From sequence record MT939240.1: a DNA stretch of 64,000 nucleotides; one strand, given 5' to 3'. This document shows, piece after piece, positions 2,917 to 48,082 of the stretch. Both the position numbers and the translations under genes were made by a program. The notes beneath the pieces were generated by a model. It was not told the DNA's origin and searched no databases. It worked only from the letters and a program-made list of their open reading frames with translations. Source of the DNA: Enterococcus phage 9181. Position 1 is the first letter of the stretch. The number at the start of each line of letters is the position of its first letter.

Positions 2917-2940
2917 GAGGCTTGACAAAGCCTCTTTTTT
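2917..2940 (+). terminator. intrinsic terminator hairpin (gaggct-tgacaa-agcctc followed by TTTTTT) whose loop carries the -35 of the next promoter
   Basis: Inverted repeat gaggct/agcctc followed by a T6 run, read directly from the sequence. Confidence 0.55.
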
Positions 2941-2950
2941 ATGCTATATT
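2922..2950 (+). promoter_or_regulatory. sigma-A-type promoter (TTGACA, 17-nt spacer, TATATT)
   Basis: Consensus -35 at 2922-2927 and -10 at 2945-2950. Confidence 0.6.
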
Positions 2951-2985
2951 ATAACAGTAGATTAACAAGGGACGGGGATGAATTA

Positions 2986-3759
2986 GTGAAGAAATCAGTT
3001 TTAAAAGACAAGCTTATAAAAATGACTGGCAAGTCTGCGGAGGAGATCGAACCTCTGATTACACACATATATGTACAACTCTTCGGAGTCTCTGGAAACG
3101 GAGGTAAATTCGGGGAGGCACACATTCCACGAGAGTTCTCGGACTACTTTTTAGAAAACTCTCCTGTAGCACAAAAGCAAGGAGACATTTACAGAACTTT
3201 AACAAGGTATGTCGAGACCTTCAAGAGATACTACAACCCAAAAGATGGTGACCAACCAATCTGTAATATTTATCTATGGAGCAATGAAAAAGGAAATGGT
3301 AAATCAACTACGGCAGCGGCATTACTAAATGAGTTTATGATTATGGGGTGGAAAGCCTCCGTATCACTTTCTCGTAGTTGGGATAAACCACCAGCATTCT
3401 TCTTGGATGTGAATGAATTACAAGCACTTTATAATAAGTTTACAAGAAATGGGATTGCTCAAGAGATTGCAGAAGAAGCTTCCCGTGAGTATTACAGATT
3501 GATTGACAAAGCTACAGTAGCACCACTTGTAGTATTCGATGATATCGGCGTAAGATCAGCAACAGAAGCTTTTCGTGGAGACATACATACCATCATTAAT
3601 AAGCGTATGGTAGACGGATTGACTAGTATTTACACCTCAAACTTTCCATTGAAATACATGGCTGAGCTGTTTGATGAACGTATTTATGACCGTATTCACG
3701 CAAACTGCATAGACATCAATTTCAAAGGACAAAGCATGAGAGGAGTGAATGCTAAGTGA
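2986..3759 (+). CDS. DnaC/IstB-like AAA+ helicase loader
   Basis: Walker A GNGKST, Walker B VVFDDIG; GTG start at 2986 after AAGGGACGGGG; the ORF-track start at 2941 overlaps the promoter -10. Confidence 0.5.
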   Translation: MKKSVLKDKLIKMTGKSAEEIEPLITHIYVQLFGVSGNGGKFGEAHIPREFSDYFLENSPVAQKQGDIYRTLTRYVETFKRYYNPKDGDQPICNIYLWSNEKGNGKSTTAAALLNEFMIMGWKASVSLSRSWDKPPAFFLDVNELQALYNKFTRNGIAQEIAEEASREYYRLIDKATVAPLVVFDDIGVRSATEAFRGDIHTIINKRMVDGLTSIYTSNFPLKYMAELFDERIYDRIHANCIDINFKGQSMRGVNAK

Positions 3760-5129
3760 GTAAAGCTACAATCACAGGAGAACTATTTCTATCAAAGGTT
3801 ATTAATGATAACGATGTAACAGCTCTTAACCGGCACGGCATCACTCGTGAACACTTCCAAACATCAACCGAGCAGAAAGCCTACGACTTCATAATTGACT
3901 ACGCTCGTTCCAACGAAGGGAATTCACCTAGTTATCAAGCACTACTTGAAAGAGTACCAGAGTTTGCATATCAAGCTTCTACAGAAGATTCATTCAAGTG
4001 GTTGGGAGAAAACATCAAGAAAGCAAAACTAAACCTTGCATTTACAAGCTTCTTTAATGGAGACGCATTTAATAAATTGTGGGCAGACTCTATCAAGGAG
4101 AACAATCCCCAAGGGTTTGCAGATGATGTAATCGCCGCTATCACTCATATTAAGAACGATAACCGAATCAGCGGTAAGACAGGGCATTTGTTATCAGACG
4201 CCCCAGAGTGGTATGCTCCAGAATACTACGACCGCAAAGAAGGAAATATTATCAAGTTCTGGAACAGTCATTTCAAAGGATTGGACGAGCTTCTTGGAGG
4301 AGGCTACCAAGGTGGTAACATGTACACTTGGTTTGCACGTTCAGGGCGTGGTAAATCTATTGTAACCATGGTAGAGGCGTTGTCAGCAGCTATTCAGGGA
4401 GCTAACGTTCTTATGTGGGTATTAGAAATGCCTAAGTACGAGTGGGCTTCACGGGCGTTCGCATTCCTATCTGCCCAAGAAGAAGTTAAACGTTCGGTTA
4501 TTGACGGCGTAGATTACCTTGGGGGATATAATGTCCAAGAACTTACAAAAGGTCAGTTGGACTACAACGAAGAAATGGACTTTATGACGTTTATCCAAAC
4601 ACTTAATGACAAGATTTCAGGATCGGTTACTATCAAAGCTGTGGATGACGAAGACTTTATCAAGCGTGACGTACGCCAGTTAGAACGAGACATTGTGGAA
4701 ACTGATGCAAACGTCGTTGTAGTTGACCCATTTTACTATATGAGTTACTCTAAGAATACCTCTCAGACAGCAGGGGGAGACGCTGCCAACACTTCTAAGG
4801 AATTACGTGGTCTTGCAGGGCGTACTAAAGTCGTTCTACATGTAATTACACAGGCTGACGAGGACAGCACAGAGAAACAAGGAGACGAACGGGAGTTGAA
4901 ATTGCCTTCACGTTCAGAGGTTAAGAAGACTAAGCAAGTACTTGAGGATGCTTCTTACTTACTCTCTTTCGATAGTTGTGACGGGCGCTTCGCATTAGGA
5001 GTTAAGAAAGGTCGTTCTGGTGGGGAAGGAGAAGAGATTCAAGGTATCTTCCTCCCTGCTATTGGATATATTAAAGAGTCTAACGACGCCATTGTCAAAG
5101 AATTGTTTGATAATAGCATTGAATTTTAA
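3756..5129 (+). CDS. DnaB-like replicative DNA helicase
   Basis: Walker A ARSGRGKS, typical DnaB C-terminal RecA-like domain layout, 457 aa, directly follows the loader. Confidence 0.75.
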   Translation: MSKATITGELFLSKVINDNDVTALNRHGITREHFQTSTEQKAYDFIIDYARSNEGNSPSYQALLERVPEFAYQASTEDSFKWLGENIKKAKLNLAFTSFFNGDAFNKLWADSIKENNPQGFADDVIAAITHIKNDNRISGKTGHLLSDAPEWYAPEYYDRKEGNIIKFWNSHFKGLDELLGGGYQGGNMYTWFARSGRGKSIVTMVEALSAAIQGANVLMWVLEMPKYEWASRAFAFLSAQEEVKRSVIDGVDYLGGYNVQELTKGQLDYNEEMDFMTFIQTLNDKISGSVTIKAVDDEDFIKRDVRQLERDIVETDANVVVVDPFYYMSYSKNTSQTAGGDAANTSKELRGLAGRTKVVLHVITQADEDSTEKQGDERELKLPSRSEVKKTKQVLEDASYLLSFDSCDGRFALGVKKGRSGGEGEEIQGIFLPAIGYIKESNDAIVKELFDNSIEF

Positions 5130-5139
5130 GGAGGGCACT

Positions 5140-5937
5140 ATGGAAAAGAGCTTAAAGGATTTGAAAGTTGGAGATTACGTTCAGTGCCGTAGAAACATCA
5201 GAAAGTTTGTGAGTGGAGAGCTGTACATGGTTCAAAAGTCTTCCCAAGGGTATCTCAAAGTTACTTCTGGAATGACCCATGAGGCATACGAGAAAATGGA
5301 TCACACTATGTATTTAGTAACCCCATTAGGAGGTCTATGTAGTATTTTCGAAGAACCCATGGAAAAGTACTTCGAATATCATAGCTTCAAACCTAAGTTT
5401 AAGGTTGGAGATGTAGCAGAACTTATAGCTGACGACTGTAATATGACAGCGGAAGGCAATATACTCTATAAGTACGCAGGAGACACAGGAGTAGTTGCCA
5501 AAGTTACTAGAGTTTTTGGTACTCTGGTTTATGTAGAATGGGAAGATGGATTTAAGGTCTACGAAACCAACTTAAAACTCCATGTGTCAACATCCAATAA
5601 AGAGGAGGAAACAGACATGAATAAATTTAAGGTAGGAGACAAGGTAGTATTAGATGGAGAAAGGTGGTCTTGCTTTAAAAACAAACCTTTTTACACGGTA
5701 ACAGAAGCTACATCTGACGGTCGGATTAGACTATTGGATGATGACATGGACGATTATTTCTGGGATGATATTGAGTTTAAATTTTACAAAGTTCCAGTTA
5801 CGGAAGGTGTAGAAATGGCTGAGCACCTTAGAGAAGTTTTGGACGATATGTCTCGACACTATGATGGGAATCACGAAAAGATCATGGTAGGGTTCGCAGG
5901 ATACTTAGCAGGAATCATTAAGGGGGCTGAATTATGA
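5140..5937 (+). CDS. hypothetical protein with three SH3/KOW-like FKVGD repeats
   Basis: ATG at 5140 after AAGGAGGG; repeated LKVGDYV / FKVGDVA / FKVGDKV modules. Confidence 0.5.
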   Translation: MEKSLKDLKVGDYVQCRRNIRKFVSGELYMVQKSSQGYLKVTSGMTHEAYEKMDHTMYLVTPLGGLCSIFEEPMEKYFEYHSFKPKFKVGDVAELIADDCNMTAEGNILYKYAGDTGVVAKVTRVFGTLVYVEWEDGFKVYETNLKLHVSTSNKEEETDMNKFKVGDKVVLDGERWSCFKNKPFYTVTEATSDGRIRLLDDDMDDYFWDDIEFKFYKVPVTEGVEMAEHLREVLDDMSRHYDGNHEKIMVGFAGYLAGIIKGAEL

Positions 5938-6494
5938 GTAAAAAAGAAAGAACTTTAGCAAATTTATCAAACGGTGGAATTATCCGTTGCATCAGTCCTA
6001 TAAGAGGATTTAAAGAAGATTTATTATACAGAGCTAAAGACGAATCAGGCTGGCTTGTAACAAACTATGACAAGATGCAAGACCTTACCTTAGTTACACC
6101 AGATGGAGAGGTAGGTACTGTAGGTGGGGTGCTTCTCTCAAAATATTTTGAACCTTATGAGTTTCAAGCAGATGATTTAGTCATACTAGAGAAACTTTTC
6201 AAAGATATTAAAGTATCGTCAGGACACCTATTGGATCAAGAATGCTACAAAGTATCATGTGTTGATACGTCGGGAGTTGTGATTATTGAGGATACAAATA
6301 ATAACGTCTGTGGTGTAAGCAAGACTTGTCTAGCACACTATGACGGAACCCAGAAAGCATTACGTGATCCTGAATATTATTGTGAACTTGCACGGCTGTA
6401 CAATAACTTAGCTATCAACCTTAAGACAGCCCACGAAGCATCGCTTAAAATTGAGGATATTCGCAAATCCATAGACGAACACCTAACTAAATAA
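5934..6494 (+). CDS. hypothetical protein
   Basis: ATGA overlap with the upstream gene; 186 aa ORF with coding-like composition. Confidence 0.45.
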   Translation: MSKKERTLANLSNGGIIRCISPIRGFKEDLLYRAKDESGWLVTNYDKMQDLTLVTPDGEVGTVGGVLLSKYFEPYEFQADDLVILEKLFKDIKVSSGHLLDQECYKVSCVDTSGVVIIEDTNNNVCGVSKTCLAHYDGTQKALRDPEYYCELARLYNNLAINLKTAHEASLKIEDIRKSIDEHLTK

Positions 6495-6499
6495 ATCCC

Positions 6500-6530
6500 A
6501 AGAAACCCTTGACAATTTCAGGGGTTTTTT
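6500..6530 (+). terminator. intrinsic terminator (ccct...aggg hairpin plus T-run) overlapping the promoter -35
   Basis: aaaCCCTtgacaatttcAGGGGtttttt. Confidence 0.55.
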
Positions 6531-6538
6531 GATATACT
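6509..6538 (+). promoter_or_regulatory. sigma-A-type promoter (TTGACA, 18-nt spacer, TATACT)
   Basis: -35 at 6509-6514 and -10 at 6533-6538. Confidence 0.6.
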
Positions 6539-6575
6539 TATATTATCAAATGAGACACATGAAAGAGGTTAAATA

Positions 6576-7130
6576 ATGGCAAAAGAGAAAGCCCCTAAAT
6601 TTAAAGAAATCGAATATTATTCAAGCATAGATGTATCAGTAAATCCATTCGTTGAGATCGGTGATTTGATAGAAGATCATAACTGGGAGTTTGAATTAAA
6701 CCGTGAGACAGGCGACTTCACAAAGGTTCCTACAAAGGTTCAGTACCTACAATGTAAAGGGTGTGAGTCTTGCAAACGTATTAAAAAATTGGGTAAGGTT
6801 ATCCATGATTGGAAGGTCGCTAAGATCATTACTAAACCTTTCGAAGAGTGGACTAGAAAAGAAGTCTTGTGGCTACTGTCACAGCGTTACTCATTACGTG
6901 ACATGTCGTTGATTACAGAATATGCAAACGTTCCTACCTTTTTGGAGGACGTTAAAGATAAGTTTGACGGCGTTGATGGGCTGAAAGCAATCTTCTTTTA
7001 CAACATTCCTATCAGCATTGCTAAGCATATTAAGCGTATAGATGAGGAGGTTTTTGACAAACTTAAAGAAGAGTACGATGAAGAGTATGTAAGCGAACCA
7101 ATTAAATTCTCTGAAAAGGTGGCTAGATAA
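6576..7130 (+). CDS. hypothetical protein (Cys cluster CKGCESC)
   Basis: GAAAGAGG RBS; 184 aa. Confidence 0.45.
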   Translation: MAKEKAPKFKEIEYYSSIDVSVNPFVEIGDLIEDHNWEFELNRETGDFTKVPTKVQYLQCKGCESCKRIKKLGKVIHDWKVAKIITKPFEEWTRKEVLWLLSQRYSLRDMSLITEYANVPTFLEDVKDKFDGVDGLKAIFFYNIPISIAKHIKRIDEEVFDKLKEEYDEEYVSEPIKFSEKVAR

Positions 7131-9751
7131 TGCTTAAGGTTAACCTATCACTTGGAGACGAGTCTAAAGTAGACCCTCATGAAGCGATTGCAAAGGCGAC
7201 AAAAGCTAAACAAATACCAACTATCGAAGAATCATGGGAAAAGATTCTAGGAATGAAGAACTCTAAGAAAGACTTAGAACGCCTGAATACCGTTAAGGAG
7301 CAGATGGAACTAGGTAATTTAGGGCGTGAGGAAGACAAGTTACATAAGGCTTTCTCGAAAGCCGAAGCACTACGTCTTTATAAACGCTACCAAGAGTCCA
7401 TGCGTGAACAACGCTTAAAGGAAATGTTCACTAAGGACTTAGATAAGTACCCATTACTAACAGACATTGACCTGATTAACGACTATGTATATAAGGCTAC
7501 ACACGCTGATGGTATTCCATTACTTAACGCCGATCATATGGTTTCTCTCGATACCGAGACGGTTGGTAATGACGGTGGTGTTGACAAGTACCGTGAAAAG
7601 ATAGCAGGGTGGTCACTAACCTTTTACAAAAATGGTGTTGAATACAATGGTTACATTCCAATTGAACACTATCAGGAAGTTGAACCAGAGGTGTGGGAAC
7701 TAGACCCACGTTGTGTAGACTATGATAAAGCCATTGGAGCTCTTTCTAGCATCCTTATCTCAGGTGTGGATACAGTCTGGCACAACGCCACATTTGACTT
7801 GGGTTTAATCTATGCTTTAACAGGAGTTGAACCTAAAGGAACCGTTCATGACACGCTTATTATTATGCACTTATTGAAAGAAGACTTGATGTCGTACGCT
7901 TTGAAAACACTGGCAACACAGTACCTGAACATCCCATCAGACACCTTCTCTGAAATGTTTGGTAAGAACGCCAAGTCCGCATACATTCCACTAGATGCCT
8001 TCCGTTGGTACGCTTCTAAAGATACTTGGGTTGGTTACAAGCTATTAGAATGGCAAGTTAAAATACTTTCTAAACCTCAATTCAGCAATATATTGAAGGC
8101 TTATTTACACATTGAAGCACCATGTATTAAGACCACTTTCCACACCGAGCGAACAGGGTTCGTAATGGACATGGAAGAAGTAGAACGACAACACGAGGAA
8201 AGTGTAGAACGTATCGCTGAATTAGAAAAGCGTTTAGCAGATCGTTTTGGAGACGTTAACTTCGGTTCCCCAGCACAGTTACAAAAGATGCTTTACTTTG
8301 ACAACGACTGGAGTCAATATGTTACCAAGGATCACAAGAGTATTTTAGATGGTCATGAAAGCTTTGATGAATGGGGTATTAGTAATAATGGTAAGTTCGC
8401 AATGACTAACTCAGGAAGCATTATACTTGACCCTGTAGTTGTTACTACGAACGAAGCGCTTGACTACCAAGGTAAAATTACTACCAAGACACTTGTCAAG
8501 CCTAAAAATAGCCAGTTAAAACTATCTGCTGACTCAGACGCTTTAAAAGCTATTGCAAAACATGCCCCAGAGCTTAGGGACTTGCTTGAACTTAAGGACT
8601 TGACTAAGCATTTAACATCATTTGTAGAGAAGATTCCAACCATGGTTTCTCCTGATGGACGATTACATGGAGACTTTAAACAAAGTAGCACTGTAACTCT
8701 TCGATACACTGCAAGCAATCCTAATTTACAACAGCAACCATACAAGGCTCGCTTAATGTTTACGGCACCAGAAGGGCAACTTATCCTAAGTGCCGATTTC
8801 TCGCAACAAGAACCTCGTCTAGCCACTCATATGAGTAATTGTAAGGCGTTGGCAGAACTTTACCGAGACGCACGTGACTTGTACTCGGAGACAGCCTCTT
8901 CAATCTTTAACAAGCCTCTCGAAGAGTGTGGGGATGGCTCCATTTACCGTAAGCAAACAAAAGTCGTTGTACTTGCCGTTTTATATGGAATGTCACACTT
9001 CACTCTAGCAGGTATCCTAGGCATTTCTAATGATGAAGGCAAAGAGTTGATAGACAACTTCTATAAGACGTATCCAGAGCTACATAAATGGATTAAGAAC
9101 AACGAGAAGGAAGTAGCTAAGCAGAAGTACGTTGAGACACCTTGGGGTACTCGTAGACGTTTTACTGATGTTAACTTTAACCTTCCTAAGAAGCCTTGGG
9201 GAGCTATGACAGAAGAAGATCGAAGAGCACGTTCAAACATCAACAGAGCCCTTCGCCAAGCTACTAATGCAAAGGTTCAGACCGCCGCTGCTATGCAAAC
9301 TAAACAAGTTATGGTGGCTGCTGATAATCTTTTAGAAGAGCTTAATAAAGCACGTGGCAAAGAGGTATTCCAATTCCTCGCCTTGGTGCATGATGAGATT
9401 CTGTACCTTGTTCCAGAAGATGTCACCAAAGATGAGGTAGAGTCTATTCGTGATGTAATGATAAATACCGTCAAACTGATTGTTCCATCTAAGACTGATA
9501 TGGCTTTGGGTAAATGTTGGGGAACACTTCAAGAGATAGATTACATTGACCAAGACGTTTACTTGGTAGGTAGCACAAAAGCCAACCAGAAGACTGAGTG
9601 GACAGAAGGTATTGGGGAAGTAGTTAGTTGGAAGAAACTTTCTAGCCACCAACAAGGAGCCGTTTACGTTGATGGTAATGACACTGGTCTACGCCTTTCA
9701 GAAAAGGAATGGGCAAACTTCATTTCAAAAGTTTATAGCAAGAAAAAATAA
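7130..9751 (+). CDS. polA: DNA polymerase I-like (family A) with 3'-5' proofreading exonuclease domain
   Basis: Exo I LDTETVG; pol motif A LSADFSQQEPR, motif B RKQTKVVVLAVLYG, motif C LVHDEIL; 873 aa. Confidence 0.9.
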   Translation: MLKVNLSLGDESKVDPHEAIAKATKAKQIPTIEESWEKILGMKNSKKDLERLNTVKEQMELGNLGREEDKLHKAFSKAEALRLYKRYQESMREQRLKEMFTKDLDKYPLLTDIDLINDYVYKATHADGIPLLNADHMVSLDTETVGNDGGVDKYREKIAGWSLTFYKNGVEYNGYIPIEHYQEVEPEVWELDPRCVDYDKAIGALSSILISGVDTVWHNATFDLGLIYALTGVEPKGTVHDTLIIMHLLKEDLMSYALKTLATQYLNIPSDTFSEMFGKNAKSAYIPLDAFRWYASKDTWVGYKLLEWQVKILSKPQFSNILKAYLHIEAPCIKTTFHTERTGFVMDMEEVERQHEESVERIAELEKRLADRFGDVNFGSPAQLQKMLYFDNDWSQYVTKDHKSILDGHESFDEWGISNNGKFAMTNSGSIILDPVVVTTNEALDYQGKITTKTLVKPKNSQLKLSADSDALKAIAKHAPELRDLLELKDLTKHLTSFVEKIPTMVSPDGRLHGDFKQSSTVTLRYTASNPNLQQQPYKARLMFTAPEGQLILSADFSQQEPRLATHMSNCKALAELYRDARDLYSETASSIFNKPLEECGDGSIYRKQTKVVVLAVLYGMSHFTLAGILGISNDEGKELIDNFYKTYPELHKWIKNNEKEVAKQKYVETPWGTRRRFTDVNFNLPKKPWGAMTEEDRRARSNINRALRQATNAKVQTAAAMQTKQVMVAADNLLEELNKARGKEVFQFLALVHDEILYLVPEDVTKDEVESIRDVMINTVKLIVPSKTDMALGKCWGTLQEIDYIDQDVYLVGSTKANQKTEWTEGIGEVVSWKKLSSHQQGAVYVDGNDTGLRLSEKEWANFISKVYSKKK

Positions 9752-9755
9752 GGGG

Positions 9756-9785
9756 TTGACAATATACCCCTTCCCATGCTATATT
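9756..9785 (+). promoter_or_regulatory. sigma-A-type promoter (TTGACA, 18-nt spacer, TATATT) inside a gggg/cccc hairpin
   Basis: -35 at 9756-9761 and -10 at 9780-9785. Confidence 0.55.
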
Positions 9786-9816
9786 AAATTAGTAATCAAA
9801 ACTAAGGAGGTTTCAC

Positions 9817-10065
9817 ATGGATAGAGAAGAATTAGAAGACTTGATTGACAGTTTACAGGCACAGCTTGACGAGGCACAGGACGACCTAAACGACGTAGAG
9901 GACGAGCTTTACGAAGCTGAGGAAGCTTTAGAAGAAGCAGAAGAAGCTGTCCTACAAGCTGAGAATTGGAAGGACAACATCCTTGACACTATCGAAGACC
10001 TTGAACAGCAACTCGAAGATGCCCAAGGAGAACTTGATGACCTTGAGGAAGAGGAGGACGAATAG
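9817..10065 (+). CDS. extremely acidic coiled-coil protein (candidate DNA mimic)
   Basis: AAGGAGG RBS; 82 aa with about 45% Asp/Glu; heptad-like LEE repeats. Confidence 0.5.
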   Translation: MDREELEDLIDSLQAQLDEAQDDLNDVEDELYEAEEALEEAEEAVLQAENWKDNILDTIEDLEQQLEDAQGELDDLEEEEDE

Positions 10066-10394
10066 TGAAGCCTGTATTCGAACCATGGAAAGACAGAATC
10101 ATTATAGGATCAAACATCTATGGAGAGAAGCACCTAGCTTTCATCGGAGGTGTAAATTGGGATGAGGAGTTAGAAGAATTTGTATATACCACAGAAGACG
10201 ATTCTAGTGCATTCACCGAATCATACCTAATAGAAGAAGGAATAGTCTTAGTTGATAGAAATTACGAAACCACTAACGACCTTAAGGAGAGAATTGACGA
10301 GCTTTTGATAGAAAACTCTAACAAGAGTCGTATCATCAGGAACCTAAAGACCCGTCTAATTGAAATTCAAAGTATTGCAAAAGCAGTTTTATAA
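10065..10394 (+). CDS. hypothetical protein
   Basis: GTG start after GAGGAGGA; 109 aa. Confidence 0.4.
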   Translation: MKPVFEPWKDRIIIGSNIYGEKHLAFIGGVNWDEELEEFVYTTEDDSSAFTESYLIEEGIVLVDRNYETTNDLKERIDELLIENSNKSRIIRNLKTRLIEIQSIAKAVL

Positions 10395-10416
10395 ACAAAG
10401 GAAGAGGGATGTAAAT

Positions 10417-10947
10417 ATGGCAGTAAAGAAATCAGAGATTAAGAACTTAGTACAAAACGAGTGGAACAAGAAAGTTAACGCACTTCGCAAAGACCGTAAT
10501 GAGGCAACACACCGTCACGAAAGAGAACAACTAAAGCCATACGAAACCTTATTCAAAGAGGTGTTTGAAGCTGAAAACAAATACACAGAAGCTCTTAATA
10601 AGGTTGCTGAGAAGTTAACCGAAGATGAGATTCGCATTTATGGATTCACTTATTTACGTTCTCCCCAATACGGCACAGACTTCGAACGCAACATGGAGAA
10701 GATAGTTCAAGACCTTTACAATGGAGCAATCAAAGGAACAGAAGCCGTTGCTCAACCGTACGAAGAAGAGATTAGCAAGATCAATGAAGCCTACCGAGGA
10801 GTTATGTCAAACGTGATCCAACTATCTCCTAAGAAAGGTTTAGACTATATCATTAAGATGGGATTTGACGTTACTTCCATCACACCAACCACAGCAGAAG
10901 TTCCAATGGTGGTTGTCGATCCAGAAGCTCTTAAATTAGATAAATAG
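10417..10947 (+). CDS. hypothetical protein
   Basis: ATG at 10417 after AAGGAAGAGGGA; the ORF-track start at 10360 is probably too early. Confidence 0.45.
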   Translation: MAVKKSEIKNLVQNEWNKKVNALRKDRNEATHRHEREQLKPYETLFKEVFEAENKYTEALNKVAEKLTEDEIRIYGFTYLRSPQYGTDFERNMEKIVQDLYNGAIKGTEAVAQPYEEEISKINEAYRGVMSNVIQLSPKKGLDYIIKMGFDVTSITPTTAEVPMVVVDPEALKLDK

Positions 10948-10983
10948 TCAGGGGTATAACTTTGACACAAAGCCTTCTAATGC

Positions 10984-11012
10984 TTGACATTAGGGGCTTT
11001 TTGTGCTATAAT
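10984..11012 (+). promoter_or_regulatory. sigma-A-type promoter (TTGACA, 17-nt spacer, TATAAT)
   Basis: Perfect consensus hexamers, preceded by a hairpin and T-run. Confidence 0.6.
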
Positions 11013-11041
11013 TAGCAAGTAAACTATAGGAGGTAGAGAAC

Positions 11042-11389
11042 TTGATTGAACAGTGGAGATACCTATATTACCAAGGGGTACTTTCAGATACATACGAAGT
11101 AAGTTCCTTTGGCAATATACGAAACGCCAAGAGCAAGAAGCTATTAAAACCACAGTACACCGGCTATGCCCACGTACGCATCAACCACAACGGACGAGTT
11201 CAAAACATACGACTTCATCGAGCAGTTGCTTCAACCTTTCTTCGAAAACTTGACACCGACAGCGTAGTAAACCACATTAACAATGATAAAACAGATAACC
11301 GTGTATGCAACTTAGAATGGATTTCCCAAGCCATGAACGTTCGCAACTCACTAATGACTAGGGGGATTTTAAATGAAGAAGCCATCTAA
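11042..11389 (+). CDS. HNH homing endonuclease
   Basis: TTG start after AGGAGG; N-terminal YEVSSFGNIRN motif; HRAV...NHINNDKTDNRVCNLEW HNH motif. Confidence 0.65.
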   Translation: MIEQWRYLYYQGVLSDTYEVSSFGNIRNAKSKKLLKPQYTGYAHVRINHNGRVQNIRLHRAVASTFLRKLDTDSVVNHINNDKTDNRVCNLEWISQAMNVRNSLMTRGILNEEAI

Positions 11390-12425
11390 GGGGCTAGCAG
11401 CCGTCACAGCACAAACAGGAGAGACTTATGAATACTCTCTCGAAGATAAAATGGCACAAGTATTTACAGAGCAATTTGACAAGTTCTGTGAAAGAGGTAT
11501 GGATACCGACGAAGAACTAACTAAATGGCTTTACATACAATACTTAGATGTACTGGGTATTAACCCACTTAAAGAAGTCCAAGACGAAATGGTATTCTTT
11601 AGAAGTTCCTCGACAGGATCGTGCCTACGTGAACAAACCATGAAAGTAATTGACTTTATGGAAGGTACTAAGAAGTCCGATCCAAGAGGTCACAAACAAC
11701 CGCATCAAACAAGATGGACAGCCCTTGGTACAGCAGGCGGAGACGTGATGCAATTCTTTGTACTTCTTATGGAGAAACATTATGAGCGCCTTGTAGGAGA
11801 ACCATTCGCATTCCGATTTGAACGTGATGAAGTAGGACATCCAATGTTTGAGCAATTCACCACAACTTACAAAGCATTTAAGAGTGGGAATATGCAGTGG
11901 GCTACAGGAGGTTCCGTAGATGGTATTATGGTATTCACTGACCCTGATACAGGTAAAGAACATCGTGTAGGACTTGAGATTAAGTCTAAACAAACATCAG
12001 CAGCTAGAACTTCTTTATACTCAATGAAAGAGCCAGACAAGAAGCACGTATGGCAAGTTAAGAACTACGCCATGTTACATGACTTGGAAAGCTACTTGAT
12101 TGTCTACTTAAACTTCTCTCACAAGACATGGGAATACACCCCAGAAGACTACACTAAAACCCCAGACTTCCGAGTATTTGGTATTCACATTACAGAAGAC
12201 GATAAAAAAGAGGTAACAGAACGTTTCTGGACAGCCGTTGAACACGCCCATGCAGGTACCTTCCCAGAGTTAGACCTTTCATCATGGACATTCAATGATT
12301 ACAAAGTAGCTTGTGCCAAGAGTCTTACCTTAAAAGAGCTTGATCGCTTAGATAAGATTGCTGTTGGCAAGTTCCAAGAACAAGCATTGCAAGAGATTTA
12401 TGACATCAGGGAGGCTTTCAGATAA
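11373..12425 (+). CDS. putative PD-(D/E)XK exonuclease (YqaJ/lambda-exo-like)
   Basis: D...GLEIKSK motif resembling the D-x-n-E-x-K catalytic core; 350 aa; lies in the replication/recombination neighbourhood. Confidence 0.45.
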   Translation: MKKPSKGLAAVTAQTGETYEYSLEDKMAQVFTEQFDKFCERGMDTDEELTKWLYIQYLDVLGINPLKEVQDEMVFFRSSSTGSCLREQTMKVIDFMEGTKKSDPRGHKQPHQTRWTALGTAGGDVMQFFVLLMEKHYERLVGEPFAFRFERDEVGHPMFEQFTTTYKAFKSGNMQWATGGSVDGIMVFTDPDTGKEHRVGLEIKSKQTSAARTSLYSMKEPDKKHVWQVKNYAMLHDLESYLIVYLNFSHKTWEYTPEDYTKTPDFRVFGIHITEDDKKEVTERFWTAVEHAHAGTFPELDLSSWTFNDYKVACAKSLTLKELDRLDKIAVGKFQEQALQEIYDIREAFR

Positions 12426-12754
12426 TGGAGAATAAATACTACAGAACGCTAGTCATTCACGCCATCAAGAACGACTACGCAACCGAGTGGGAACTTTACT
12501 TAGACCTTGACCTAGAGGGTTACGACAGCCTTATGGTATATCTCATGGATGCTGTTAACAACGCCCATGACGATGCTTATGAAAAGATTGTTGAACTGCC
12601 TGACATGACAGGCTGTGTTAAATACATTGATGCATCACTTATTACAGACTTTACACTTTCAGCAAACATTTCTAAAGAGGAAATGGAAGAAATGGTAGCA
12701 GACGCTTTAGGACTTGACGAATTTTATGACGACGAGGAGGAAGATTTATGGTAA
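12425..12754 (+). CDS. acidic hypothetical protein
   Basis: ATGG overlap with the upstream stop; acidic C-terminus DEFYDDEEEDLW. Confidence 0.4.
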   Translation: MENKYYRTLVIHAIKNDYATEWELYLDLDLEGYDSLMVYLMDAVNNAHDDAYEKIVELPDMTGCVKYIDASLITDFTLSANISKEEMEEMVADALGLDEFYDDEEEDLW

Positions 12755-13314
12755 GATATTTAGGACTTGATGTGAGCTCGGTTGCCACGGGTGTTGCGGT
12801 GGTGGACAGAGCCCCTGATGGCTCCCTTACCAAGGTAGTAACAGACGTCATCACAACTTCCTCTAAGCAAGAGATTGGCAAGCGCCTAGTGCTCTTTGCA
12901 GAAACACTTCAAGGATTCTTCGATGAATATCAACCAGATTATGTGATCCGTGAGGAAACCATTAACAACCGTGCTTCTAACGCCATCTTATTTAAGTTCT
13001 TAGGAGTGGCTCAATTCCTAGCATGCAACAATGGTCATCAAAAGACTTACGAGTATTATCCTACAACTATCAAGAAGGAAGTCACAGGCGCTGGCAGAGC
13101 TTCTAAGGAGACTGTTGCCAAGTGTGCACAACAATACTTTAGAGAAGACTTATCGGAGCTCACAGACGACGAGACGGACGCTATTGCATCTATCTTAACA
13201 CACCTTTCCAAAACATCCATCATAACAACTGTAGAAGATTATGACAACCTACAGGAACACGACTCAGAACAACAACAACTTGTAGAGGGGTACGAGAATG
13301 GGACTATCCAATAG
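12748..13314 (+). CDS. ruvC: RuvC-like Holliday junction resolvase
   Basis: N-terminal YLGLDVSSVATGVAVVD, comparable to RuvC ILGIDPGSRVTGYGV; 188 aa. Confidence 0.75.
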   Translation: MVRYLGLDVSSVATGVAVVDRAPDGSLTKVVTDVITTSSKQEIGKRLVLFAETLQGFFDEYQPDYVIREETINNRASNAILFKFLGVAQFLACNNGHQKTYEYYPTTIKKEVTGAGRASKETVAKCAQQYFREDLSELTDDETDAIASILTHLSKTSIITTVEDYDNLQEHDSEQQQLVEGYENGTIQ

Positions 13315-13888
13315 CAAACAGATACGAATTGCAATTTCTGGAAAAAGCCGTTCAGGGAAAGATACTTTGGCTGATGCTATCAAGGCAGAATTTAAGCGTC
13401 AGGGAAAGACAGTTATCCCATTAGCTTTTGCAGATGGCATTAAAGAAATATATAAACAGAACTTCCGATATGTTAAAACCGACTGCAAACCTCGTGAAGC
13501 CTATATTACCATTGGAGAAGCCTTCCGTGCAGTAGATGAAAACGTGTGGGTTGAACGCCTTAAAGGACGTGTCGAAGAGAGCTACCAATGGGATGTAGTC
13601 ATCGTGACAGACCTTCGCAGAAAGAACGAAGAGGAATACCTAAAGGATGCTGGATTCACAACCATCTTAGTAGATTCCTCAGATGAGATTAGAATCGCCC
13701 GTGCCAAGGCTTTAGGAGAGCATTTAGAGGCTTCTAATGCAGGCGATGATGAAGTAGATTTATTAACACCTGATATAACTATCCATAATGACAACGACGT
13801 TCGAGACTGGTCAGCACCTGCTCAAAGAATCGTAGAACAAATCAGAGAGGTGGCTACCATTAATGGATACCAACGAACAAAGAATTAA
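13298..13888 (+). CDS. deoxynucleoside monophosphate kinase (P-loop)
   Basis: IAISGKSRSGKDT P-loop; 196 aa; next to other nucleotide-metabolism genes. Confidence 0.5.
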   Translation: MGLSNSKQIRIAISGKSRSGKDTLADAIKAEFKRQGKTVIPLAFADGIKEIYKQNFRYVKTDCKPREAYITIGEAFRAVDENVWVERLKGRVEESYQWDVVIVTDLRRKNEEEYLKDAGFTTILVDSSDEIRIARAKALGEHLEASNAGDDEVDLLTPDITIHNDNDVRDWSAPAQRIVEQIREVATINGYQRTKN

Positions 13889-14594
13889 ACCAAGCAAGAT
13901 TAAAGGAAATAGCCAGAACCGTGTATTAAAGGATGGAAGCGAGATTCGATATGACCTCCCCCTTTACCGCCAGATCACAGAGGCAGCTAATACACGACTT
14001 TTCTCAAAGGCTGTACAATACTTAATCGAAAGCAAACTTTATAAAGTCTTCCTACCACGGGAAGTACGAGAAGAGTTTGTAAATGACATAACCGAAATCT
14101 ATTACCGCAAGTTTGGATACTTGTCAGTGATGGATGACGCCTTGACCAATTCCTTAGCCGAATACTTCTTACATAACGACGTTAAAGTAATGCCTGACTA
14201 CACCGTTAAACGACCTGATTGTAACTTCTTTGAATATCCTTTCGAGGGACATCGAATGAGACTTCGTAATCACATGTCTCCATACCGCTTCGAAGTTCCT
14301 GTGGATACAGACTTCAACGAAATGCTCTTCAACGAAAACCTATTTTCAGATTCAACCCCAGAAGACGACTTAACACGAGTCGATGAGACCCTTGACATTA
14401 CACAAGCATTTGAATTAGCTGACTTAACAAAGTTAGAGCAAGACATCGTATGGCTTAACTCAGTGGTTGGAATGAGCCTCAGAGATATTGCTGACCTAAG
14501 CGATGAGTTTCCTAGTAAATCAGCCCTTTCATATAAGCTTAAGGAAGCTAAAGACAAGCTCAGAAAAGCTGTTGAAAAACACCAACTAAAATAA
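13863..14594 (+). CDS. sigma-70 region-4-like transcription regulator (putative phage sigma factor)
   Basis: C-terminal LEQDIVWLNSVVGMSLRDIADL...KLKEAKDKLRKA matches the sigma region 4 helix-turn-helix pattern. Confidence 0.45.
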   Translation: MDTNEQRIKPSKIKGNSQNRVLKDGSEIRYDLPLYRQITEAANTRLFSKAVQYLIESKLYKVFLPREVREEFVNDITEIYYRKFGYLSVMDDALTNSLAEYFLHNDVKVMPDYTVKRPDCNFFEYPFEGHRMRLRNHMSPYRFEVPVDTDFNEMLFNENLFSDSTPEDDLTRVDETLDITQAFELADLTKLEQDIVWLNSVVGMSLRDIADLSDEFPSKSALSYKLKEAKDKLRKAVEKHQLK

Positions 14595-14599
14595 TCTAA

Positions 14600-14628
14600 A
14601 AATCCCTTGACAAGTTCAGGGGGTTTTT
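14600..14628 (+). terminator. intrinsic terminator (ccct...aggg hairpin plus T-run) overlapping the promoter
   Basis: aatCCCTtgacaagttcAGGGggttttt. Confidence 0.55.
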
Positions 14629-14636
14629 GCTATACT
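14607..14636 (+). promoter_or_regulatory. sigma-A-type promoter (TTGACA, 18-nt spacer, TATACT)
   Basis: Near-identical copy of the 6509 promoter module. Confidence 0.6.
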
Positions 14637-14664
14637 TGTTTAAGTAGTCGAGAGGAGGAAAGAA

Positions 14665-14880
14665 ATGTACCTTGTATTTTATAAATACGGAGAAGATTTG
14701 AAACCCCACTTTTTAGGAGCTTACAACTCCTACACAGAAGCACGTAATAGTGCAATAGTTTCCGCTTCTTTTAAAACAGATACTGCCACGTTTAAAATTA
14801 TTTCAGTAGTGATTGACTTAGACTCTGAGGACAGTCCATGGAAAGACAAGAAAGAACTTGTGTGGGAGGGGCGTGATTAA
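14665..14880 (+). CDS. hypothetical protein
   Basis: GAGAGGAGGA RBS; 71 aa. Confidence 0.4.
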   Translation: MYLVFYKYGEDLKPHFLGAYNSYTEARNSAIVSASFKTDTATFKIISVVIDLDSEDSPWKDKKELVWEGRD

Positions 14881-15107
14881 TGGGTATTCTTAAAGAGTTC
14901 ATAGCTGCGTTCGTAGAAACATTCCTAGAAGCATTAATTGGTTGTGTATTCGCCATAGCAATAACCGCACTACTCATTGGATACTTCTGGCTTATGTTAT
15001 CAGTAGCTAAAAGCTTTTCATGGTTCACTACAGTAATTGTGTGTTCATTTTTAACAAGTGTTTTAGTAGCCATCCTCGGAGCACTAGTAGAAATATTTGG
15101 ATATTAA
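14880..15107 (+). CDS. small membrane protein
   Basis: ATGG overlap; two TM helices. Confidence 0.4.
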   Translation: MGILKEFIAAFVETFLEALIGCVFAIAITALLIGYFWLMLSVAKSFSWFTTVIVCSFLTSVLVAILGALVEIFGY

Positions 15108-15119
15108 AGCGGAAAGGAT

Positions 15120-15926
15120 TTGATTATGATTTTAACATTGGCAGGCGTAATCGGAGTTGGTAAATCTTCGATGACACAATTATTAGCGGACTTATTAGAC
15201 ACCGAGGCGGTGTATGAGCCCGTTGATAACAATCCATTTTTAAAGAAATTCTATGAGGACAAAAGTAAATACGGGTTCTTATTCCAGATAGACATGCTAT
15301 CTAAAAGGTTTGAAATGATTCAGACAGCCATGAGCGTTAACAATGGCATCTTGGATCGTTCCGTGTACGAGGATAGCATCTTCTTAGATCAACTCTATCA
15401 AGAAGGTCAAGTAACAGACCTTGAACAAGAGGTTTACCACAACCTATTAAACCGCATGCTGAAAGAATTGGAGCCACTTCCTAAGAAGTCTCCAGACTTA
15501 ATGATTGTTCTTAACTGCACGTTTGATGAAGAAATTAGACGTATCAATTCACGAGCTAGAGAGTTTGAAAAGGTGGAAGAAGGCACTGAGCTATATGAGT
15601 ACTTCAAACTCCATCACGAGAACTATCAGAAGTGGATTGAGAAAGACTTGAACTTCCCCAAAATAGTCTTGGACGTCACTAATAAAGATTTTGTAAATAA
15701 CCCCAAACACCAACTAGAATTGTTGACAACTATCTTGGTAAAGCTTAACGAAGTAGGTGCATTGACAACTTTAGACACGGTACGTAAACTATGTGAGATC
15801 AATTCAGTACCTTGGGACAAAGACAATGCCCAAGCTTATGCCATGTACTTGTACAACAAACACGAAGGCAAGATGCCTTTCCACGAGCTTAGCCAATTCA
15901 CTGACAACACTTCATTATATGAATAA
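15120..15926 (+). CDS. deoxynucleoside kinase (dNK family)
   Basis: P-loop LAGVIGVGKSS; LDRSVYED (the DRS motif); 268 aa. Confidence 0.75.
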   Translation: MIMILTLAGVIGVGKSSMTQLLADLLDTEAVYEPVDNNPFLKKFYEDKSKYGFLFQIDMLSKRFEMIQTAMSVNNGILDRSVYEDSIFLDQLYQEGQVTDLEQEVYHNLLNRMLKELEPLPKKSPDLMIVLNCTFDEEIRRINSRAREFEKVEEGTELYEYFKLHHENYQKWIEKDLNFPKIVLDVTNKDFVNNPKHQLELLTTILVKLNEVGALTTLDTVRKLCEINSVPWDKDNAQAYAMYLYNKHEGKMPFHELSQFTDNTSLYE

Positions 15927-15982
15927 GCGCCATTTAACAGCGCATATGCAACATTAAAATTATTGGAAGAAGGTATTTAATT

Positions 15983-16714
15983 TTGGAAAACATTACTAAA
16001 CTGTTCACTATCAACTACTACAAAAAAGGTCTATCAGGGTGGTCGAAATCCTCCTACACATTATTAACGATTGGCTTAATTATCCAAGCATTTATCGGAT
16101 TCGCTTTACCACTTGTTCAAGGTCAGCCAATCACTCTCACAGGAGTTACCGCCACTATTGCAGGGATGATAGGGTTCACTTGTACACTTGCTATTACTAA
16201 CGAGCGCTCCATTAATGGTATCCTAGGGTTTATCTCAGCACTTCTTTTAATTGGTGTTGCCACAACTACAGGAAACTATTCAGACATTATTATGCAAGGT
16301 GCATACATTATTCTATTAGACATTCCAATTATCTTCTCCAAGCGTTGGAACAATGGATTAGAACCACGTAAGATGAATGTTAAGAACATGTTCGGAACAG
16401 TCGCTTTAATGATCTTATTCTTCATCGGACTTTATCTACTTGATACAGTTATCCTACACTCCCCACAAGCTTTACTAGATGCTTCAAGCGCTATGATCGG
16501 TTTAGTCGGAGCCGTCTTATGTGTTCGAGGATTCCGTGCTCAATACTACTTCTGGACTTTTCAAGGTCTTATGTCAGTAGCGTTATGGATTCAAACAGCA
16601 ATGAATGGTCACGCCGTTTGGGTTCTTATGGTAACTTACATGTTGTACCTAGGAAACGACTTGGTTGCATTCTTAGACTCAGGTTGGTTCAAAAAGAATA
16701 AAGCAAAAGCTTAA
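15983..16714 (+). CDS. PnuC-like nucleoside/nicotinamide-riboside transporter (multi-pass membrane)
   Basis: About 7 TM segments; Trp-rich C-terminal signature (WNNG, YYFWTFQG...ALWIQ, GWF) as in PnuC. Confidence 0.45.
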   Translation: MENITKLFTINYYKKGLSGWSKSSYTLLTIGLIIQAFIGFALPLVQGQPITLTGVTATIAGMIGFTCTLAITNERSINGILGFISALLLIGVATTTGNYSDIIMQGAYIILLDIPIIFSKRWNNGLEPRKMNVKNMFGTVALMILFFIGLYLLDTVILHSPQALLDASSAMIGLVGAVLCVRGFRAQYYFWTFQGLMSVALWIQTAMNGHAVWVLMVTYMLYLGNDLVAFLDSGWFKKNKAKA

Positions 16715-16720
16715 TAACAG

Positions 16721-16750
16721 AGGCTTGGGAATTATCCCAAGTCTTTTTAA
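16721..16750 (+). terminator. intrinsic terminator (cttggga-at-tcccaag plus T-run)
   Basis: Hairpin read directly from the sequence. Confidence 0.55.
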
Positions 16751-16758
16751 ATTTGTGC

Positions 16759-16788
16759 TTGACAGTTTTACTGTGGGCGTGGTATATT
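16759..16788 (+). promoter_or_regulatory. sigma-A-type promoter (TTGACA, 18-nt spacer, TGgTATATT)
   Basis: -35 at 16759-16764 and -10 at 16783-16788. Confidence 0.55.
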
Positions 16789-48053: not shown

Positions 48054-48082
48054 TTGACAGTTAGCCTTTTGTGTGCTATAAT
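48054..48082 (+). promoter_or_regulatory. sigma-A-type promoter inside the morphogenesis block (TTGACA, 17-nt spacer, TATAAT)
   Basis: Perfect consensus hexamers. Confidence 0.55.

Follow-up and report, generated by a model that had tools for sequence, protein, structure and literature searches.

A conserved hyper-acidic coiled-coil protein encoded behind the DNA polymerase of Enterococcus phage 9181 is a candidate DNA decoy

What does a small, hyper-acidic protein do for a phage when its gene lies directly behind the DNA polymerase? We addressed this question in Enterococcus phage 9181 (sequence record MT939240.1), of which one strand of 64,000 nucleotides was analyzed (hereafter the window). 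Enterococcus faecium and E. hirae are hosts of phage 9181 and its relatives, which have been studied for therapy (bioRxiv 10.1101/2020.09.22.309401); a host function disabled by the protein would bear on host range and resistance. The original prediction put the gene product forward as a candidate DNA-mimic anti-restriction protein made from a strong early promoter. The gene and the features around its start are as follows.

7130..9751, plus strand: family-A DNA polymerase with a 3'-5' exonuclease domain (Pfam DNA_pol_A 3.4e-72, DNA_pol_A_exo1 4.5e-10), immediately upstream, given as context only
9756..9785, plus strand: sigma-70/SigA-type promoter matching the consensus, TTGACA-18 nt-(TG)cTATATT, with TG extension
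9804..9810, plus strand: ribosome-binding site AAGGAGG, 6 nt 5' of the ATG, read from the sequence
9817..10065, plus strand: gene for the hyper-acidic coiled-coil protein, 82 aa (open reading frame translation, helix model, orthologues and pN/pS)
9855..9934, plus strand: weak 21-nt (7-codon) tandem periodicity (Tandem Repeats Finder: period 21, 2.9-3.6 copies, 72% matches)

Our translation of 9817..10065 was identical to the predicted one. The 82-aa protein contains 23 Glu and 15 Asp, so that 38 of its 82 residues (46.3%) are acidic, and its only basic residues are R3 and K52, with no His; this agrees with the predicted ~45% Asp/Glu and lack of a basic patch. The net charge is ~-36 and the pI ~4.05. 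Among all open reading frames of at least 60 aa in the window, it is the most acidic by a wide margin, the runner-up reaching 29%.

The predicted heptad periodicity was also evident. Hydrophobic residues occupy 20 of the 21 a and d positions (a: I10, L17, L24, L31, L38, V45, K52, I59, L66, L73; d: L6, L13, A20, V27, A34, A41, A48, I55, L62, A69, L76) in an unbroken register, with a hypergeometric P of 2.9e-11 for the best of the seven registers tried. Consistently, AlphaFold2 run on the single sequence predicted one helix spanning residues 3-81 (mean pLDDT 96). Acidic residues fall at the remaining positions (9/12 b, 9/12 c, 7/11 e and 7/12 f) and are almost absent from the seam (0/11 d, 1/12 a). 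A Foldseek search of viral structures with this model returned zero matches, as expected for a lone helix. The 21-nt periodicity in the DNA is the trace of this heptad repeat and is consistent with growth of the gene by duplication of heptad units. A non-coding repeat or an origin was considered and rejected, because the periodicity is that of the heptads and substitutions follow a coding pattern.

We infer DNA-like dimensions from an idealized parallel two-stranded coiled coil, which would be ~115 Å long, equivalent to 34 bp, and would carry 72 carboxylates at a radius of ~8.4 Å. Its linear net charge would be 0.589 e/Å (negative), against 0.588 e/Å for B-DNA, and both length and charge density hold only if the protein is a dimer. 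On that assumption, it shows the features of the DNA-mimic class, namely small size, strong negative charge and duplex-like dimensions and charge spacing. The charge distribution, proposed earlier as a check against B-DNA, thus gave a divided answer: linear density is equal in the dimer model, but we found no discrete DNA-like helical charge pattern, the outward heptad positions being acidic almost uniformly. Such near-uniform charge without a groove-like helical pattern points to a generic polyanion rather than a shape-specific mimic.

Five consecutive d positions are Ala. Such a run, combined with so much charge, would make a simple parallel homodimer less stable, and the protein may instead assemble in antiparallel or higher-order form or as a hetero-complex. 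One form of hetero-complex would be an acid zipper, in which the helix is unfolded alone and folds on a basic amphipathic helix of a partner, thereby neutralizing or regulating it. The extreme like-charge fits this idea, as does the position of the protein on the disordered side of a charge-hydropathy plot, although that criterion is uninformative here since T7 gp5.9 likewise scores as disordered. Large residues of a partner would also fill the Ala run at d. We nevertheless consider an acid zipper improbable for reasons that concern its candidate partners, given below.

Is the gene real? It was present in 12 of 12 related loci fetched, its homologues being reached via neighboring genes. The resulting 13 copies share 80-93% identity, and 12 of the 13 have the same counts of 38 acidic and 2 basic residues; Asp/Glu exchanges account for about half of the columns that vary. 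Presence at every locus and a pooled pN/pS of 0.18 exclude a chance, non-functional open reading frame and demonstrate a genuine gene under purifying selection. Homologues in the sister lineage are 46-49% identical, 49-50% acidic and built on the same heptad register and core, showing that charge, register and the Ala run at d are conserved across two lineages. Conservation is strong in the N-terminal 16 and C-terminal 24 residues, including the C-terminal ...DDLEEEEDE, while the middle is variable yet always acidic.

Direct homology searches gave a very different impression. A word-indexed search of 5.8 billion proteins with the 82-aa query yielded zero matches, exhaustive phmmer against 1.84 billion representatives a single 42-aa fragment, and tblastn against GenBank phages only four E. 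hirae phages; scans for related loci with the protein in IMG/VR, GTDB genomes and JGI metagenomes found none. However, JGI/IMG contig 3300011908 bears a true homologue that the IMG/VR and JGI scans had missed, and the negative searches with this protein are therefore unreliable, likely owing to its composition and to low-complexity filtering. Degenerate DNA patterns for the conserved gene ends, searched in IMG/VR, retrieved that contig alone. Standard homology searches thus failed to see true homologues of a protein of such low complexity, and surveys of anti-defence genes probably under-count proteins of this kind.

Family searches were similarly uninformative. Pfam, PHROGs, PADLOC, NCBIfam and PDB sequences returned only sub-threshold coiled-coil noise, and matches to SMC, Rad50, ZorA, LmuB, JetC, myosin and prefoldin were rejected as kinship on this ground. 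No solved structure matched in sequence. No Ocr entry appeared among the matches listed from Pfam, PHROGs, NCBIfam and PDB sequences, where the best bit scores were 17-24 against curated cut-offs of 23-70 and above. ArdA, whose three alpha-beta domains differ from the single predicted helix, had no match in Pfam, NCBIfam or PDB. BLASTP against T7 gp5.9 (NC_001604) gave E = 1.5 over 8 residues, and no sequence kinship to Gam was found. The protein does display a heptad seam, outward acidic residues and a single long helix; a gp5.9-type parallel homodimer is one possible assembly, with antiparallel or hetero-assembly as alternatives given the Ala run at d.

Capsid scaffolding or assembly-chaperone activity had been named as a fallback for the gene, and sub-threshold Pfam hits to Phage_scaffold (E = 0.033) and Prefoldin_2 (E = 0.0049) seem at first to point that way. 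Both are generic coiled-coil signal; Phage_scaffold scored 14.6 bits against a cut-off of 35, and every family match fell far under its curated cut-off. Additionally, the gene lies within the replication module, ~29 kb from the morphogenesis block (38.6-64 kb). Together with the non-functional frame dismissed above, we regard this reading as very unlikely.

We then considered the expression signals. As predicted, 9817..10065 is the first gene behind the consensus promoter at 9756-9785, which is conserved in EH802P1, EH93P1 and the sister lineage L021; the AGGAGG core of the ribosome-binding site is conserved in the aligned relatives. A weak hairpin lacking a T-run, AAGGGGT...ACCCCTT (9750-9772), has the -35 box in its loop. 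The label "early" was not confirmed. The window holds nine perfect TTGACA-N17/18-TATAHT sites, against 0.08 expected by chance, and the promoter of the acidic gene is one of this spread-out set. Six of the nine are scattered over the replication block (2922-16759), and another, at 48054, falls within the structural block. It is of host type and would allow expression without phage factors.

These signals bear on the proposed anti-restriction role, in which an Ocr- or ArdA-like rod would fill the DNA groove of type I restriction-modification (R-M) enzymes or of the BREX methyltransferase and so shield unmodified phage DNA. A host-type promoter suits such a role, and a ~34 bp rod of DNA-like charge density would fall between Ocr (24 bp, PMC2806950) and ArdA (42 bp, PMC2731889), the latter from Tn916 providing a precedent in mobile elements. 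Nonetheless, the protein has no similarity to Ocr, ArdA or another anti-restriction family, and its gene is not in a leading, first-entry position like T7 gene 0.3, being one of many with identical promoters. Phage 9181 also carries nucleotide-kinase genes and a weakly glycosyltransferase-like gene, which offer another possible route past classical restriction; relatives with such genes have been discussed as DNA-modifying phages (PMC11322646). The choice of type I R-M or BREX as the target is thus unsupported, and we consider this role improbable.

The genes downstream were examined for possible partners.

10065..10394, plus strand: 109-aa gene; its GTG start codon overlaps the TAG stop codon that ends the acidic gene
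10417..10947, plus strand: 176-aa gene (PHROG 1618, function not known), which lies downstream of the acidic gene as a conserved partner in both lineages
10974..11012, plus strand: terminator-like hairpin with T-run, overlapping the next consensus promoter at 10984-11012

The hairpin closes a three-gene unit (9817-10947). The overlap between the first two genes, conserved as ATAGTG or ATAATG, implies that they are translationally coupled. The product of 10065..10394 ends in a 25-residue basic heptad helix, and coupling to such a gene would suit an acid zipper; its AlphaFold2 model was poor (pLDDT 57) and unfit for a fold search. Besides this C-terminal helix, possible partners are a host regulator and the N-terminal helix of the 176-aa protein, whose family has a basic, helical N-terminus in both phage types, as read from the sequences and alignment. 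Against the zipper, however, the candidate helices carry only ~+4 to +6 over 25-40 residues, well under -36, and the 10065..10394 gene, the fastest-evolving of the cluster (pN/pS 0.45), is absent from the sister lineage.

The same neighborhood raises a serious rival to a decoy role, namely that the acidic rod is a replisome accessory that binds to basic patches on the phage polymerase, on the 176-aa protein or on an SSB-like protein and organizes or regulates the replisome. The gene directly follows the DNA polymerase in every copy, and the surrounding module encodes a helicase loader, helicase, thioredoxin-domain protein, exonuclease and RuvC, placing the gene in a replication/recombination context rather than a first-entry early region. 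The 176-aa gene is retained downstream in both lineages, while the 109-aa gene is dispensable, and in the unrelated Enterococcus phage phiFL4A a 176-aa homologue has a Gp2.5-like SSB on one side and a family-A polymerase on the other. This conserved pairing fits a replisome role at least as well as a decoy. Further supporting it, purifying selection on the acidic gene resembles that on neighboring replication genes, and the highly conserved termini, acidic tail included, suggest a fixed partner.

Other observations argue against a replisome role. The gene is missing from Saphexavirus relatives and from Listeria, Bacillus and Carnobacterium phages with the same polymerase-exonuclease-RuvC core, so it is not a core replisome part. 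The slot between polymerase and exonuclease varies in content among related phages: membrane proteins occupy it in EG103P2, SAP6 and phi47 have unrelated genes there, Listeria LP-110 has an HNH gene alone, and Bacillus 268TH007 has an epsilon-like exonuclease. A second hyper-acidic coil was found in none of these five. Moreover, phiFL4A has no hyper-acidic coil beside its 176-aa homologue, and no strongly basic phage protein stands out in the window as a partner. We therefore rate a replisome role as possible but on the unlikely side.

We tentatively favor a polyanionic coiled-coil rod acting as a DNA decoy for a DNA-processing protein, a reading that we hold at somewhat less than an even chance. 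A small, hyper-acidic amphipathic helix would be made abundantly, and the helices would associate along their hydrophobic a/d seam to form a rod, in the simplest case a homodimer, with an outer surface all of carboxylate. Serving as a polyanionic substitute for double-stranded DNA, the rod would fill the basic DNA-binding groove of its target and keep that protein off DNA during phage replication. Target specificity would come from the conserved N-terminal 16 and C-terminal 24 residues, and the variable acidic middle would supply length and charge. The proposal of a DNA mimic accordingly stands in part: size, conserved charge, the helical heptad and, if dimeric, the density of the rod make a DNA-mimic-type decoy role plausible, but the protein has neither sequence kinship to characterized DNA mimics nor a discrete DNA-like helical charge pattern.

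By analogy with known systems, the target may be a host end-processing or SMC-type complex (cf. T7 gp5.9), a type I R-M or BREX system (cf. Ocr, ArdA) or a nucleoid protein (cf. SPO1 Gp46), and we favor none of these. In a bolder and rather improbable version, the protein would surpass in length and charge any natural coiled-coil DNA mimic seen so far (~34 bp, ~-72 per dimer), would be unrelated in sequence to gp5.9, and would act with the 176-aa protein at the replication factory. As a decoy there, it would divert the host machinery that surveys DNA ends or loops (AddAB/RexAB, SMC-ScpAB, or SMC-like defence such as Lamassu or Wadjet) from replicating phage DNA. If the decoy reading is true, a second, unrelated and far more extreme coiled-coil DNA mimic, from a phage of Gram-positive bacteria, would mean that this solution evolved more than once, and the protein would offer a minimal scaffold for decoy engineering.

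How does the protein compare with known acidic proteins? Basic patches of replisome proteins serve as docking sites for the acidic C-terminal tails found on T7 gp2.5, T7 gp4 and bacterial SSBs, and the tails of gp2.5 and gp4 engage T7 DNA polymerase. The 82-aa protein resembles them as an acidic element; its gene neighbors that of a family-A polymerase, and its ...DDLEEEEDE end is conserved. In contrast to these short tails on folded DNA-binding proteins, usually with an aromatic last residue, it is an acidic element over its whole length and ends in Glu. A better fit to the tail pattern is the 109-aa product of the neighboring 12425..12754 gene, for which an acidic tail had been correctly predicted; its C-terminus, ...LDEFYDDEEEDLW (...EEEDLW), is conserved in relatives.

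TifA (Orf65) comes from Enterococcus phage phi47, a phage with a DNA polymerase 51% identical to that of phage 9181. It is a type IV restriction inhibitor and the only anti-restriction protein shown experimentally in this phage neighborhood; the authors who described it did not place it among the DNA mimics (PMC11322646). Like the 82-aa protein, it is a small acidic Enterococcus phage protein, but with 21% acidic residues and a predicted SH3-like fold, against 46% in an all-helical protein, it was rejected as a relative. The HU inhibitor Gp46 and the RNA polymerase-binding DNA mimic Gp44 of phage SPO1 (PMC8892312, PMC8208478) are small negative proteins of a Firmicutes phage that block DNA-binding surfaces of abundant host proteins. 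They are host-takeover genes, whereas the gene studied here lies in a replication module.

Ocr is the first T7 gene to enter and be expressed, whereas the acidic gene lies after the DNA polymerase inside a replication module. The dimeric Ocr imitates 24 bp of B-DNA (PMC2806950) with a compact helical fold that is 29% acidic (PMC3439906; 34 acidic and 6 basic residues in 116 aa), and the dimeric ArdA of Tn916, with three alpha-beta domains per monomer, imitates 42 bp and gives mobile elements with ardA their anti-restriction mimicry (PMC2731889). High acidity is common to all three, as are, if a dimer is assumed, extended duplex-like dimensions, the modeled rod measuring ~34 bp with B-DNA-like linear charge density. 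ArdA has a helical charge pattern, in contrast to the near-uniform coverage on a lone heptad helix. The original statement that Ocr and ArdA share the properties of this protein was therefore loose, as neither is a single heptad helix and neither shows sequence kinship.

To our knowledge, T7 gp5.9 is the only natural coiled-coil DNA mimic described. In the Gram-positive host, AddAB/RexAB and SMC-ScpAB take the place of RecBCD and MukBEF. T7 gp5.9 is a parallel coiled coil that inhibits RecBCD and MukBEF (PMC9836394, PMC7617805), has been reported as specific for RecBCD versus AddAB, and was regarded by its authors as unprecedented in architecture (PMC9836394). It has 52 aa, 25% acidic residues, a net charge of ~-8.5 and an N-terminal beta-strand brace, whereas the 82-aa protein is 46% acidic, carries ~-36 and consists of a single helix with no brace. 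Both proteins are nonetheless small, helical, acidic (pI ~4) and based on a coiled coil, and each is encoded in a DNA-metabolism module, where its gene has a DNA polymerase upstream and an exonuclease downstream. By this analogy, T7 gp5.9 appears to be the closest architectural precedent for the hyper-acidic protein of phage 9181.

The ORF at 9817..10065 (+) translates exactly to the 82-residue acidic protein of the original prediction. That this is a real gene is indicated by its promoter, by an AAGGAGG motif 6 nt upstream of the ATG and by its retention in 12 further loci under a pooled pN/pS of 0.18. Phage 9181 is a 71,854-bp siphovirus with E. faecium Com12 as host (bioRxiv 10.1101/2020.09.22.309401), and the DNA of the window is ~93% identical to that of four E. 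hirae phages (EH802P1, EH802P2, EH93P1 and EH93P2). All 12 further copies of the locus, drawn from GenBank and public assemblies, carry the gene at the same place with 82–84 codons, and protein identity between copies is 80–93%. Of the 25 alignment columns that vary, roughly half interchange Asp and Glu, one interchanges Lys and Arg, and several replace one core hydrophobic residue with another; the totals of 38 acidic and 2 basic residues are unchanged in 12 of the 13 copies.

Pooled pN/pS values
7130..9751, family-A DNA polymerase gene: 0.08
10417..10947 (+), 176-aa gene: 0.16
9817..10065 (+), acidic gene: 0.18
10065-10394, coupled 109-aa gene: 0.45

The protein is as acidic as had been estimated (~45% Asp/Glu): 23 Glu and 15 Asp make up 46.3% of its residues, by a wide margin the highest share among window ORFs of at least 60 aa (runner-up, 29%). 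R3 and K52 are the only basic residues, His and Pro are absent, Gly occurs once, and the net charge is about −36 with a pI of ~4.05. Another small acidic candidate is a putative 49-aa ORF at 27949-28098 (− strand; 35% Asp/Glu, MEEEFFEFTIELHDGVVLKRLVASREELVTLCEQLEDDEDVIWWDYEEV) in a leftward-transcribed block of small genes. The predicted heptad periodicity runs without a break from residue 6 to 76.

Core heptad positions of the acidic protein
a positions: I10, L17, L24, L31, L38, V45, K52, I59, L66, L73
d positions: L6, L13, A20, V27, A34, A41, A48, I55, L62, A69, L76

Hydrophobic residues fill 20 of these 21 positions (hypergeometric P = 2.9e-11, for the best of the seven heptad registers tried), and acidic residues are essentially absent from them; the outward positions carry the acids (b 9/12, c 9/12, e 7/11, f 7/12, g 5/12). 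AlphaFold2, given the single sequence, predicted one uninterrupted helix spanning residues 3–81 (mean pLDDT 96). A weak 21-nt (7-codon) tandem periodicity in the DNA at 9855-9934 is compatible with lengthening of the gene by duplication of heptad units.

The gene had been placed behind a strong early promoter. The promoter at 9756-9785 (TTGACA-18 nt-TATATT with a TG extension) is strong by its consensus match; "early" goes beyond the evidence. The gene lies not in an early host-takeover block but in a replication/recombination module.

Gene order in the module
RNA ligase
Thioredoxin-domain protein (2444-2905)
DnaC-like loader
DnaB-like helicase
Family-A DNA polymerase (7130..9751)
Acidic gene (9817..10065, +)
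Coupled 109-aa gene (10065-10394)
176-aa gene (10417..10947, +)
HNH endonuclease
Cas4-like nuclease
109-aa acidic-tail protein (12425-12754)
RuvC
dNMP kinase
Sigma-like protein (13863-14594)

This location disfavours the scaffolding or chaperone role that had been offered as a fallback. Including the one at 9756, the window contains nine perfect TTGACA-N17/18-TATAHT sites where chance would give 0.08; six lie along the replication block (2922-16759) and one in the structural block. The three-gene unit 9817-10947 is closed by a terminator-like hairpin (10974-11012) that overlaps the next promoter. At several promoters (2892-2950, 6479-6538, 10954-11012 and 14577-14636) the TTGACA −35 element is embedded in a strong hairpin, in its loop or its stem, and the 3′ arm and T-run of that hairpin occupy the promoter spacer (e.g. 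caagaaacccTTGACAatttcaggggttttttg at 6509). These overlaps look like compact combined terminator-promoter modules separating transcription units; the copy before the acidic gene (9750-9785) has a weaker stem and no T-run.

Other members of the module deserve mention. The phage-encoded thioredoxin-domain protein (phrog_22, E = 1.5e-10), which shares this module with a T7-like family-A polymerase, is reminiscent of T7, which employs host thioredoxin as a processivity factor. The polymerase gene is intact in the window; in several related phages (loci L010, 326-3687; L013, 879-3687; L021, 943-4622) an HNH/NUMOD endonuclease ORF has inserted into it and splits or truncates it, a pattern that looks like mobile introns or homing endonucleases moving through the gene. 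Between the Cas4-like nuclease and RuvC, the second 109-aa protein (12425-12754) has the acidic tail noted originally; it is conserved, with a terminal aromatic (LGLDEF[YF]DD(D)EE[EG]DLW), and resembles the partner-docking tails of SSBs and T7 gp2.5. No homologues of this protein were detected outside the lineage, and the phi47 and phiFL4A proteins at the equivalent position are unrelated; phiFL4A gp17 likewise ends in an acidic tail (...DDLEEDELFN). Next to the dNMP kinase, on its downstream side, is a 243-aa protein whose C-terminal 70 residues weakly match a family of phage sigma factors (phrog_3512, E = 5.5e-4). The Listeria phage LP-110 gene at the same position is annotated as a putative sigma factor, and the 243-aa protein may be the phage's own late-gene sigma factor.

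The acidic gene's stop codon shares sequence with the 109-aa gene's start codon (ATAGTG; in some relatives, ATAATG), which indicates translational coupling. The 109-aa gene is the fastest-evolving of the cluster (protein identity 67–78%, with RuvC of the same phages at 99–100%) and is 100% identical to phi9181_ORF029; its product is predicted, in a poor model (pLDDT 57), to have a beta-rich N-terminal part and a basic heptad C-terminal helix. Through the 176-aa neighbour we reached a sister lineage, comprising IMG/VR contig 3300011908 (72,375 bp) and two read-archive contigs. There, acidic genes of 85 and 88 aa occupy the same position behind the same hairpin-plus-promoter and are followed directly by the 176-aa gene. 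The 109-aa gene is missing, so the conserved pair is the acidic gene and the 176-aa gene, beside the polymerase. The sister proteins align to that of 9181 gap-free at 46–49% identity, share its heptad register and a/d core together with the Ala run at d, and are even more acidic (49–50%, net −39 to −43). Conservation between lineages is uneven (69% over residues 1–16, 29% over 17–58 and 71% over 59–82); both ends thus resemble specific contact or assembly motifs, and the middle looks like a spacer that would be selected solely for charge and helicity. Positions 51 and 52, which are W and K in 9181 and are invariant or conservatively replaced across its lineage, read E51 and F52 in the sister lineage; neither W51 nor K52 is essential to the family.

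Similarity searches with the acidic protein as query, covering GenBank phages, IMG/VR, GTDB genomes, JGI metagenomes and large protein collections, were all empty or nearly so. Since one of these collections contains contig 3300011908, compositional-bias filters probably conceal true homologues; HMMER- and BLAST-based searches overlooked them even in collections that include them, and they were recovered by walking from the neighbouring genes and by matching degenerate DNA patterns of the conserved termini. The patterns for the N- and C-terminal motifs matched only contig 3300011908 in IMG/VR. The family seems limited to these ~70-kb phages, although the lack of homologues elsewhere is not to be over-read given what the filters may hide. 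Pfam, PHROGs, PADLOC, NCBIfam and PDB sequences returned sub-threshold generic coiled-coil matches only.

A protein of the temperate Enterococcus phage phiFL4A is homologous to the 176-aa protein (PHROG 1618) over its full length (27% identity, E = 3e-17) and is encoded there between a Gp2.5-like SSB and a family-A polymerase. Because the acidic gene stays linked to the polymerase and to this polymerase-associated family, a role as replisome accessory, on the model of the acidic tails in T7 gp2.5 and gp4, is a serious alternative. The gene is absent from phages with the same replication core, arguing that it is not a core replisome part. In other polymerase-exonuclease-RuvC phages the post-polymerase slot holds membrane proteins (EG103P2), other genes (SAP6 and phi47), an HNH gene only (Listeria LP-110) or an epsilon-like exonuclease (Bacillus 268TH007), indicating that the acidic and 176-aa pair is lineage-specific cargo in a variable slot of the replication module. 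Saphexaviruses encode a different, unrelated acidic protein just upstream of the polymerase (phi47, L006 5354-5737; SAP6, L003 4303-4656) of 117–127 aa, 28–33% acidic, with a Cys-rich motif and acidic tail (...CGCCMCCGC[ST]CDDYMWEDDGSFDDDDWGDDD).

A lone 79-residue helix carrying −36 is an unstable object, and its hydrophobic seam must pack on another helix. In a rival acid-zipper arrangement, it would fold onto a basic helix of the 109-aa, 176-aa or a host protein; the Ala stripe and the translational coupling are compatible with this, but the helices that might serve as partners have only a mild basic character, and the 109-aa gene is itself dispensable. Built instead from Crick parameters as an idealised parallel coiled coil of two strands, the protein would give a rod 115 Å long, equal to 34 bp, with 72 carboxylates at a mean radius of ~8.4 Å. 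Its net linear charge matches B-DNA (0.589 vs 0.588 e/Å) for a dimer that is itself assumed; on that assumption, the rod would be close to DNA in gross dimensions and charge density. In such a parallel dimer, g-to-e′ pairs are acid-acid in 4 of 11 cases, the others being Gln-Gln, Ala-Glu, Trp-Leu and similar. The Ala run at d, common to both lineages (five of the d positions in 9181), better suits antiparallel or hetero-oligomeric packing and counts against a simple parallel dimer.

As the best available mechanism, a polyanionic, DNA-sized rod would occupy basic DNA-binding surfaces. A DNA-mimic-like decoy is a reasonable reading of the composition and context, in a class whose defining functional criterion is competitive binding at the target's DNA site. 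The original proposal is partly supported: the protein has the descriptive traits of DNA mimics, being small and very acidic, with DNA-like dimensions in the dimer model. The tests run placed it in none of the Ocr, ArdA, Gam, gp5.9, TifA or Gp46 families. The proposed target, type I restriction-modification or BREX, is without specific support and is one of several candidates. TifA, the only protein of related Enterococcus phages with proven anti-restriction activity, is unrelated, being 21% acidic with a predicted SH3-like fold (PMC11322646). The acidic protein is a striking, cleanly defined and readily testable object. For its architecture the precedent is T7 gp5.9, which mimics DNA as a parallel coiled coil and blocks RecBCD and MukBEF (PMC9836394, PMC7617805); the gp5.9 gene likewise follows the DNA polymerase and precedes an exonuclease. 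Gp5.9 has no sequence similarity to the acidic protein and, at 52 aa, 25% acidic and net −8.5, is much milder. Should the decoy reading hold, the 9181 protein would be a second coiled-coil mimic, independent of the first and far more extreme.
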